In this document: positions 33,464-35,284 of the stretch, one piece after another | Position numbering within the stretch: the stretch's first letter is position 1 | Layout: each line of letters begins with the position of its first letter | Virus genome (UHGV): UHGV-0091782 | Source of the DNA: a virus | Strand: one strand, 5' to 3' | Length of the DNA: 38,471 bases | Notes under the pieces: generated by a model | The model's input: only the letters and a program-made list of their open reading frames with translations | Databases searched by the model: none | Told to the model about the DNA's origin: nothing | Translations under genes and position numbers: made by a program

Positions 33464-34138
33464 ATGAAAACAATCCATGACATCCGGCGGTCTAACGCCA
33501 GAAAACTGAGAGATGGTGTTGGCGGGAATTCTTCCTTTGCCACTATGATTGATCGCGAGCCAACCCAGACCAGCAGGTTTATGGGAGATGGTGCTACTAA
33601 AAATATCGGTGACAGCATGGCACGACACATCGAAAAATGTTTCGACCTGCCTGTCGGATGGCTCGATCAAGAACACCAGACAACGAACATCACAAAAAAA
33701 CCTGATGTTTCAATCACTAATAAACAAATCACATTAGTCCCTGTCATATCATGGGTACAGGCCGGAGCATGGAAAGAAGTTGGATATTCTGAGGTTGATT
33801 TGAGCACAGCAGAAACGTATCCCTGCCCTGTACCCTGTGGGGAAATGACTTATATCTTGCGGGTGATAGGTGATTCAATGATTGATGAGTACCGCCCGGG
33901 AGACATGATTTTTGTCGATCCTGAAGTACCTGCCTGCCACGGTGACGACGTTATTGCATTGATGCACGATACAGGCGAAACCACCTTCAAAAGGTTGATA
34001 GAAGATGGGACACAGCGTTATCTCAAAGCGTTAAACCCAAACTGGCCTGAGCCTTACATTAAGATCAACGGTAATTGCTCTATAATTGGTACAGTGATTT
34101 TCTCAGGAAAACCAAGAAGATACAAAATCAAAGCCTAA
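33464..34138 (+). CDS. cI: CI-type prophage repressor (N-terminal DNA-binding domain plus C-terminal S24 LexA-like autopeptidase domain)
   Basis: C-terminal ...VIGDSMIDEYRPGDMIFVDPE...TFKRL... contains the Ser and Lys catalytic dyad context; divergent from the cro-like gene; apparently leaderless-type start. Confidence 0.85.
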   Translation: MKTIHDIRRSNARKLRDGVGGNSSFATMIDREPTQTSRFMGDGATKNIGDSMARHIEKCFDLPVGWLDQEHQTTNITKKPDVSITNKQITLVPVISWVQAGAWKEVGYSEVDLSTAETYPCPVPCGEMTYILRVIGDSMIDEYRPGDMIFVDPEVPACHGDDVIALMHDTGETTFKRLIEDGTQRYLKALNPNWPEPYIKINGNCSIIGTVIFSGKPRRYKIKA

Positions 34139-34150
34139 TCAATGTTTATG

Positions 34151-34173
34151 AACCTGCTTCGGCAGGTTTTTTT
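34151..34173 (+). terminator. Rho-independent terminator after cI (stem aacctgc/gcaggtt, loop ttcg, 7 T)
   Basis: aacctgcttcggcaggttttttt, 13 nt after the cI stop. Confidence 0.7.
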
Positions 34174-34177
34174 ATAC

Positions 34178-34210
34178 TTGACAATGTACCTTTAAGATAC
34201 ATAATGTACC
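34178..34210 (+). promoter_or_regulatory. Probable PL promoter (-35 TTGACA 34178-34183; -10 CATAAT 34200-34205) overlapped by two ATGTACC operator half-sites
   Basis: Consensus -35, 16-nt spacer, 5 of 6 match at -10; ATGTACC at 34184-34190 and 34204-34210. Confidence 0.55.
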
Positions 34211-34331
34211 CAAGCGAAACAACGAACAGGCAGGACGCCCACGAAGTAGCCGCCTGGGGCATATGAAGTCCAGGATGATTCGTTGAGTCATGTTGTGCCA
34301 CTAGGCACTCATGTTAAAGCAGGTGTATGAA

Positions 34332-34607
34332 ATGAAAGTCCAGATTTTAAACAATAACTGTGAAGTCGTTTGGTCATACGACATAGCCGCCCCTGTAGAT
34401 CAGAGCGGCGATAGCTGGACCAATGGGAAACATCAGATTATGGCTGGAGTTGTGTTCTCTTTACGCCGTGCTTTGGAACAGGCTGAAGTATTTCCATCAG
34501 ACCCTGAATGGAAATGGCCTTTTTCTATTTGTCCAAATTCGGAGAGCACATTTCAGAAAATTGGTCAGAAAGTCGCACTCGAAGAGCATCAGCCAACTGT
34601 TTCCTGA
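34332..34607 (+). CDS. Hypothetical first gene of the early-left operon (91 aa, start at the second Met with AGGTG upstream)
   Basis: ORF 34311..34607; not Arg-rich, so not an obvious N homologue. Confidence 0.35.
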   Translation: MKVQILNNNCEVVWSYDIAAPVDQSGDSWTNGKHQIMAGVVFSLRRALEQAEVFPSDPEWKWPFSICPNSESTFQKIGQKVALEEHQPTVS

Positions 34608-34770
34608 TTTTTTCAGGTAACTCGTCGGCATCGCAGAAACAACAACGCTCGATCATGTTGAAAGCCGATTCGTAGAACTGTTTCTGCTGAGTGTCGCTGA
34701 GACAGGAAAAGAGCGACGTTACGATGATTTTATTAATTGCATTATCAAGTTCTTTTTCATCAAAAGTCAT
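34525..34770 (-). CDS. Hypothetical protein (81 aa) convergent with and overlapping the 34332-34607 ORF by 83 nt
   Basis: ATG 34770 with AAGGA 7-8 nt upstream; protein-like composition. Confidence 0.35.
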   Translation of the reverse strand: MTFDEKELDNAINKIIVTSLFSCLSDTQQKQFYESAFNMIERCCFCDADELPEKIRKQLADALRVRLSDQFSEMCSPNLDK

Positions 34771-35024
34771 TTGATTTTCCTTTTATGTATACGGGCTTAA
34801 AAGGATACCACCGAGCCTGAAGTGGTGAAAAGACAGGCACATAACAGCTAAGTATTTTCAACCAAAGAGAATCCTTAGCGTTGTGGTGAATGCGGCTCAG
34901 CGCACGCGGGTTAAGGTTGAGGCTGACAGTCGACCTTCTGTGGATACCCACCCGTCTGGTGTGCAACCTTCGCCAGGCACCGGGAGGCACCCGGCACCAC
35001 AACTTTATGCTGTGTGTAGTCCTG

Positions 35025-35070
35025 GCGGTACCAGTTTGTACCCTTGCTTCCGGCTGGTACCGTCCTTTTT
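35025..35070 (+). terminator. Strong hairpin (10-bp stem gcggtaccag/ctggtaccgt, 19-nt loop) followed by CCTTTTT; tL-like terminator or structured RNA element
   Basis: Read in sequence; second weaker hairpin plus ATTTATT at 35173-35193. Confidence 0.45.
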
Positions 35071-35284
35071 ACAAAACAGAGAAGAGCATCACCGGACGAC
35101 GGGCTCATAACCCAATCCATCCGGGCGGCTGCCACCGCAGGTGTTCTTCTCTGTTTTGTGGAGAAACTAACCGCCCCTGCGGGGGCATTTATTGAAACGT
35201 AATTAACTCAATAATCGCCGAAATGCGAGGGCTTCCTTTTAGCAAAATTCAGTGCGGTGCAGCGCAAATAACGTAGAGAACAAA

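Follow-up and report, generated by a model that had tools for sequence, protein, structure and literature searches.

In phage lambda, the immunity repressor gene cI is followed by the operator and promoter OL/PL, the leader element nutL, the first PL gene, N, and then sieB, which is encoded on the opposite strand, converges with N and abuts it without overlap. The sieB gene is an exclusion gene expressed in the lysogen. The rexA and rexB genes are located between cI and OL. P22 sieB/esc and BstA with aba are prophage defence genes with built-in self-immunity, also found next to the repressor gene. In the former, sieB gives rise to esc as an internal, in-frame product, and in the latter aba is a DNA element.

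Pairs of convergent genes with overlapping transcription, in which the expression of one gene suppresses that of the other, are called excludons. RNA-seq analyses of Escherichia coli K-12 have identified ymfI-ymfJ of e14 and sieB-ydaF of Rac as convergent excludons (PMC12288877). Upon DNA damage, the PL-proximal gene ymfJ of e14 is upregulated by 4-4.8 (log2) and its protein is detected, while the PR-side gene ymfM rises too and the convergent gene ymfI is upregulated by only 1-2 (log2) (PMC11002266).

We analysed the immunity region of the virus genome UHGV-0091782, a stretch of 38,471 nt hereafter called the window, to which all coordinates refer. This region shares 99% identity with that of Shigella phage SfV and is found with 100% identity in a prophage of E. 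coli strain Es_ST80. The plus strand of the window corresponds to the 'leftward' direction of lambda. The features relevant to this work are the following, from left to right.

33376-33173, minus strand: cro-like gene, given for context
33464..34138, plus strand: cI-like immunity repressor gene of the LexA/S24 family (Pfam Peptidase_S24, E=1.5e-26)
34150..34175, plus strand: intrinsic terminator that ends the repressor transcript (8-pair stem, then a T-run; SfV terminator annotation)
34178-34205, plus strand: PL, TTGACA-16-CATAAT (promoter scan, 11/12 matches)
34185-34201 and 34205-34221, plus strand: two copies of the PL operator (repeat search)
34221..34287, plus strand: structured leader RNA of the PL transcript, 67 nt, left border of the slot described below (RNAalifold, covariation)
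34332..34607, plus strand: gene A, first gene of the PL operon, 91 residues (SfV orf33, PHROG 3195)
34525..34770, minus strand: gene B, convergent with gene A, ATG start, acidic product of 81 residues (PHROG 3311)
34802..34840, minus strand: promoter-like element facing PL, 39 nt, right border of the slot

The repressor gene is named cI in SfV, and PGAP annotates it as ymfK, coding for a LexA family protein. The 17-bp repeat TGTACC-N7-TACA has no exact copies other than two in the cro/cI intergenic region (33380 and 33430) and one in the spacer of PL (34185), and an additional copy at 34205 has one mismatch. Because the operator repeat is confined to these two regions, the promoter at 34178-34205 is assigned as PL with its operators, a repressor-controlled promoter. 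According to the PGAP annotation of the identical E. coli locus, the PL operon continues with genes coding for a yfdR-like 5'-deoxynucleotidase, a PAPS-reductase-like protein, a hypothetical protein, an excisionase-like protein and an integrase, and no N-like gene is found further along it. From its sequence, the window corresponds to an SfV/e14-type lambdoid prophage devoid of N.

An earlier note on this DNA, made without database searches, had described gene A as poor in Arg and unlike an N antiterminator, which our analyses bear out. The gene A product has 2 Arg among its 91 residues and a pI of 4.95. It yielded an E value of 0.22 in BLASTP against lambda N and no match in Pfam, NCBIfam or PDB, and none of the tests applied identified it as an antiterminator. 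No nut site, i.e. a boxA followed by a boxB hairpin, is present between PL and gene A, as the interval from 34206 to 34331 harbours the covarying 67-nt RNA instead. No boxA-like CGCTCTTA was seen on reading the sequence of the PL-gene A interval.

The coordinates of the two ORFs and their overlap of 83 nt (34525-34607), as given in that note, match the ORF listing exactly. The overlap ranges from 74 to 176 nt in other lineages. The gene A frame is open from a first ATG onwards (34311..34607, 98 residues), and the 91-residue form starts at the ATG at position 34332, which is preceded by GCAGGTG. Both genes have a Shine-Dalgarno sequence. That of gene B, AAGGA (34782-34778), is located 7 nt 5' of its ATG. 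This motif is retained in all diverged lineages, in agreement with the good ribosome-binding site noted previously.

Annotations of this locus are inconsistent. SfV and PGAP annotate gene A alone, and phage SKA5 annotates gene B alone. The earlier note had envisaged that one of the two ORFs might be spurious and had suggested conservation and codon-substitution analyses as a check. We performed such tests on the non-overlapping part of each ORF, using seven lineages with 60-78% DNA identity. For each ORF, its own frame alone is free of stop codons in 7/7 lineages, and stops interrupt each of the remaining frames in several of them. Variable columns are distributed over codon positions 1, 2 and 3 as 33/22/49 for gene A (p=0.005) and as 24/22/48 for gene B (p=0.001), an excess at the third position in both cases. 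The mean pN/pS ratios are 0.33 for gene A and 0.27 for gene B, with all other frames having values of ~0.9-1.9 or containing stops. The 83-nt overlap gives no clean signal in either frame, as double constraint would predict. In several lineages, gene A could be extended to a 122-residue form. We rejected this form as a shadow of gene B, as the extension varies at codon position 2 and has a pN/pS of 1.33.

This frame-specific purifying selection on both ORFs, together with their systematic co-occurrence (see below), led us to reject the proposal of a spurious ORF, and both gene A and gene B are genuine genes under purifying selection. As both are real, an annotation correction is called for. 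The cassette is found in ~7.5% of complete E. coli genomes, in SfV and in prophages of Salmonella, Klebsiella and Yersinia, and one of its genes is missing from most annotations. The pair also represents a clean natural case of tail-to-tail overlapping coding genes kept together over deep divergence.

We next compared the two products with known proteins. Both are hydrophilic and acidic, with pIs of 4.95 for gene A and 4.6 for gene B and GRAVY values of ~-0.4 (-0.40 for gene B). Neither protein matches any entry of Pfam, NCBIfam or PADLOC or any PDB sequence. Their PHROG matches, PHROG 3195 and PHROG 3311, correspond to these two families, to which no function is assigned. The AlphaFold2 model of gene B is a three-helix bundle predicted with moderate confidence (pLDDT 80.8), and Foldseek searches with this model against PDB and BFVD returned nothing significant. 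The model of gene A is unusable (pLDDT 47.8). Thus, the family searches revealed no resemblance of either protein to known exclusion, defence, toxin or antitoxin proteins. Names attached to the gene B cluster in source databases, 'ChaB' and 'phage tail protein', were discarded, having no Pfam support.

The earlier note had placed the pair at a position equivalent to that of rex or sieB. The second part of this statement stands, as the pair is downstream of PL at the position of lambda N/sieB. The order is the same as in lambda, namely repressor gene, OL/PL, leader element, first PL gene, and then a convergent gene on the opposite strand. Like sieB, gene B faces PL and directly follows the first PL gene. 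The first part has to be abandoned, since the pair does not occupy the rex slot between cI and PL. We rejected a RexAB-type layout because cI ends at 34138 and is followed by the terminator and then by PL, with the pair located beyond this promoter, whereas rexA and rexB precede OL in lambda. The similarity to N/sieB is restricted to the arrangement. The coding regions of gene A and gene B overlap by 83 nt, unlike those of N and sieB. SieB has 184 residues, compared with 81 for gene B, whose product is predicted to be a soluble, acidic, helical protein, and there is no sequence relationship between the two. BLASTP of gene B against lambda SieB gave an E value of 31, with no Pfam or PADLOC match, and no relation of the pair to RexAB, to SieB or to a defence protein of PADLOC emerged from family searches or from BLASTP against SieB. 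Its position makes an exclusion role of the pair a plausible hypothesis. P22 sieB/esc and BstA/aba are likewise accessory genes located by the immunity region and paired with a self-escape element. Nevertheless, their escape element is not a separate convergent gene, and they have no homology with gene A and gene B.

The distribution of the pair was then analysed. Among 102 gene B loci, 102 also carry gene A, the sole exception being a truncated prophage remnant, and both ORFs are present in each fetched encoding contig and IMG/VR locus. The module of 509 nt aligns with zero indels across lineages that have 60-78% DNA identity. Protein searches identified gene A homologues with 50-68% identity, and an exhaustive profile search found just 19 gene A relatives among 1.84 billion representative proteins. 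A profile search with gene B detected homologues in Salmonella, Klebsiella and Yersinia. In the distant loci L228, L229 and L230, a convergent, 3'-overlapping gene B homologue is recognizable at 46%, 31% and 33-36% identity, respectively.

The cassette is found in 408 of 5426 complete E. coli genomes (~7.5%), if a genome is counted when 80% or more of the 509-nt module is present. No copy of it turned up in two scans of the GTDB species-representative genomes, and the diverged sequences analysed here come from IMG/VR and from the contigs on which database proteins are encoded. Wherever the flanking DNA suffices, the pair is the first unit past the repressor gene, despite differing types of repressors. 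Homology between phages starts at the gene A start and stops just past the upstream region of gene B with its promoter-like element. In a Yersinia-type prophage (L099, 2890-3500), the cassette is located between PL and the leader RNA, with a 14-bp direct repeat, ATCAACAGCGAACA, on both sides. The mosaic borders and this insertion flanked by repeats indicate that the cassette is mobile, and the pair behaves as a mobile accessory cassette of ~509 bp. The L099 repeat resembles a recombination or insertion junction.

A truncated prophage of E. coli U1 (L006, 2415-2702) harbours the first 67 codons of gene B fused to DNA of a tail-fibre remnant, and the fusion is annotated as a hypothetical protein of 95 residues. 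Several database 'homologues' of both ORFs are similar artefacts, resulting from frameshifts or truncations.

Analyses of loci that contain the leader RNA revealed that the interval between this RNA and the promoter-like element is a slot for at least 10 unrelated cargoes. Loci with alternative cargoes are L174, L220, L205/L192, L018, L134, L131, L206, L221, L217 and L234. Each cargo is composed of ORFs on the plus and minus strands that overlap tail to tail, except in L217, where no plus-strand partner was found. The cargoes include ymfJ/ymfI of e14 and the pair of SfII composed of an orf and SfII_36. In both, the leader RNA is found upstream, the pair occupies the same slot, and the promoter-like element is located 35-38 nt upstream of the convergent gene. 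The convergent 3' overlaps are 63 nt for ymfJ/ymfI and 39 nt for the SfII pair, compared with 83 nt here. YmfJ/YmfI and the SfII proteins were considered as homologues of gene A and gene B and rejected, as they are unrelated in sequence. A tblastn search of SfII with gene A gave a weak match (35% identity, E=7e-3), on which we did not rely. The e14 and SfII pairs represent alternative cargoes of the slot rather than homologues, and gene A/gene B is a new, uncharacterized cargo in a known kind of arrangement.

Almost none of the cargoes has a Pfam or PADLOC match. Similarities include a ClpX C4 zinc finger encoded by one A-type cargo gene, which exceeds the Pfam cut-off, a weak match (E=7e-6) between a B-type zinc-ribbon protein and PDC-M14A, a candidate in PADLOC, and a weak resemblance of another cargo protein to Lar, below the cut-off.

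The right border of the slot, upstream of gene B, is the 39-nt element that faces PL. On the minus strand it reads TTTTCA (34831-34826), an 18-nt spacer that ends with TGG, and TATCCT (34807-34802), consistent with a candidate promoter with an extended -10. Its -35 is weak (4/6 matches), and a generic promoter scan made no call. Locus L012 no longer has the TG of this extended -10. No repressor operator is present in the element. It is more conserved than the coding sequence, and in at least 10 unrelated types of cassettes its distance to the start codon of the convergent gene is 33-38 nt. It is also present without gene A/gene B in hundreds of other E. coli genomes, including K-12, where it lies 38 nt upstream of ymfI. 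Homology between the window and e14 upstream of ymfI stops inside the -10.

The element harbours two interleaved inverted repeats, ACCAC/GTGGT (34807-34811 with 34822-34826) and GCCTG/CAGGC (34815-34819 with 34834-34838). Compensatory changes affect three of the pairs that the repeats would form, and the observed score was reached by 0/500 shuffles. The repeats might form an RNA pseudoknot of the H-type, on the plus or the minus strand, or else represent a DNA operator or protein-binding site. The evidence from G-U versus A-C combinations points both ways. The second inverted repeat is lost in a variant found in L192.

The left border of the slot is the leader RNA, which is predicted to form a closing helix and a hairpin whose loop is GGCAUAYGAA, and in which the GGCAGGACGCCCACGAAGUAGCC stretch is invariant. 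RNAalifold analyses and pair counts showed that 95.5% of cells are paired, with a covariation score of 0.60 compared with 0.16 for shuffles and at most 0.14 when the partners are slid. There are more than 130 distinct variants, with abundant compensatory changes in the closing helix and the hairpin. This RNA is conserved and unannotated in phages of Escherichia, Salmonella, Klebsiella, Yersinia, Pantoea and others. Rfam has no entry for it, using gathering as well as permissive thresholds. A covariance model that we built, R1, gives scores of 74-91 bits on the leaders of SfV-type phages, SfII, SfIV and e14, and it finds one copy in the window.

The leader RNA is reminiscent of the put RNAs of HK022 and HK639, as it is a structured RNA of ~67 nt located just past PL in phages without N. 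It has the short motifs ACGAAC.GGC and CAGGAUGA in common with putL. Its helices differ from those of put, however, and a single copy is present in the window. Identity with HK022 putL was rejected, as BLAST against the HK022 region detected no similarity and R1 had no match on putL or putR of HK022 or on the annotated putL-like RNA of HK639. Rfam does not include put itself. In addition to its putL-like RNA, HK639 has an 'M3-like RNA' annotated after a cII-like gene (L232, 37910-37969). The put RNAs cause terminator read-through by binding the zinc-binding domain of the beta' subunit of RNA polymerase (PMC9378689). By its position, the leader RNA of the window is a candidate N-independent antiterminator. 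The architecture of the slot and this RNA are the most interesting leads of our analysis.

How might the pair function? The reading that we favour, with about even confidence, is that it is an excludon-type cassette in which gene B codes for an effector expressed in the lysogen and the early gene A neutralizes or replaces it. Gene A and gene B are convergent neighbours, and because their coding regions overlap by 83 nt, their transcripts must overlap if both are expressed. As the first gene of a repressor-controlled PL, gene A would be off in the lysogen and turned on at once upon induction or infection. Transcription of gene B in the lysogen would start at a promoter of its own (34831-34802, minus strand), since this promoter harbours no repressor operator. 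When PL fires, RNA polymerases coming from it would collide with those initiated at the gene B promoter, and the two mRNAs, complementary over at least 83 nt, could pair. Both collision and RNA pairing would lower gene B while gene A rises. The two genes are probably switched in opposite ways by lysogeny and induction.

In this excludon model, the gene B effector would serve in exclusion, defence or host modification, and gene A would counteract it, sparing the phage's own lytic growth, a logic comparable to that of sieB/esc. That linkage and geometry are kept down to ~30% protein identity suggests that the two proteins act on one another or share a target, and their co-inheritance may point to an antagonism between them. 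By analogy with described systems, the gene B promoter would be active, expression of the two genes would be mutually exclusive and the cassette might confer an exclusion phenotype. The model is supported by the geometry of lambda N/sieB and by the e14 expression data, which come from the analogous slot of K-12 but pertain to proteins that are not homologous to gene A and gene B. The model leaves the interleaved inverted repeats of the promoter-like element unexplained. If correct, it would describe a simple switch in which a function of the lysogen is tied to its own shut-off upon induction, and the slot could be used to find small exclusion or host-modifying systems of prophages missed by homology-based defence finders.

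Alternatively, the pair might be composed of early regulators without a role in defence. In this case, gene A would act early in lytic growth, for instance in the takeover of the host or by modulating the decision between lysis and lysogeny, with gene B as its dedicated brake, the two tuning the timing of induction. Lambdoid PL operons hold many small regulators, gene A comes first in the PL operon in every context, and the pair has no PADLOC match, all of which fit this explanation, as does the strong induction of e14 YmfJ late in the SOS response (PMC11002266). Nevertheless, the slot hosts many unrelated pairs, a pattern typical of accessory cargo and not of core regulators. Furthermore, ~92% of complete E. 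coli genomes are devoid of the pair, and many of them have the leader RNA with other cargo. We consider this possibility a serious one, if unlikely.

The collision-switched pair of the excludon model can also be viewed as one instance of a more general system. In this rather speculative proposal, N-less lambdoid phages would have an undescribed hypervariable slot, in which the leader RNA and the PL-facing promoter bracket effector/antidote pairs that are switched by transcriptional collision. Gene A/gene B would then be a new, small exclusion/self-immunity pair, and the leader RNA would represent a second class of RNA antiterminators, independent of put, that explains the missing N. If such a slot exists, it would be worth mining for many more exclusion and self-immunity systems.

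The earlier note had also considered a toxin-antitoxin-like module. Type II toxin-antitoxin systems are co-directional operons with autoregulation, and type I systems combine a small hydrophobic peptide toxin with an antisense RNA antitoxin. The layout found here matches neither. Type II was rejected because the genes are convergent and no toxin or antitoxin domain was found, and type I because both products are hydrophilic and acidic and both frames are under selection at the protein level. A toxin-antitoxin-like addiction module, made of a growth inhibitor and its antidote that stabilize the prophage, would be in line with the strict co-inheritance of two small genes and with gene B being acidic like many antitoxins. 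Given the convergent orientation, the soluble, acidic nature of both products and the absence of a toxin or antitoxin domain in either protein, we regard it as improbable.

Finally, it is very improbable that one ORF alone is a gene and the other a chance or shadow frame, or that the gene B transcript is only an antisense RNA to gene A, as, notwithstanding the disagreement between annotators and the occurrence of shadow ORFs at the locus such as the gene A extension, the non-overlapping parts show frame-specific purifying selection with zero stops in seven lineages, the gene B protein is recognizable at 31-46% identity in distant loci and its Shine-Dalgarno sequence is conserved.

A last observation concerns the DNA beyond the excludon-like cassette. 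At gathering thresholds, Rfam yielded no match anywhere in the window. Below threshold, the stretch from 34858 to 35073 (plus strand), outside the pair, resembles RF02076 (STnc100), with 39.5 bits for a gathering score of 47 (E=8e-7). PGAP annotates a 'frameshifted hypothetical protein' that covers this stretch. Many Stx2c-converting and mEp phages share the segment 35023-35184 with ~96% identity, and it is unannotated in them.
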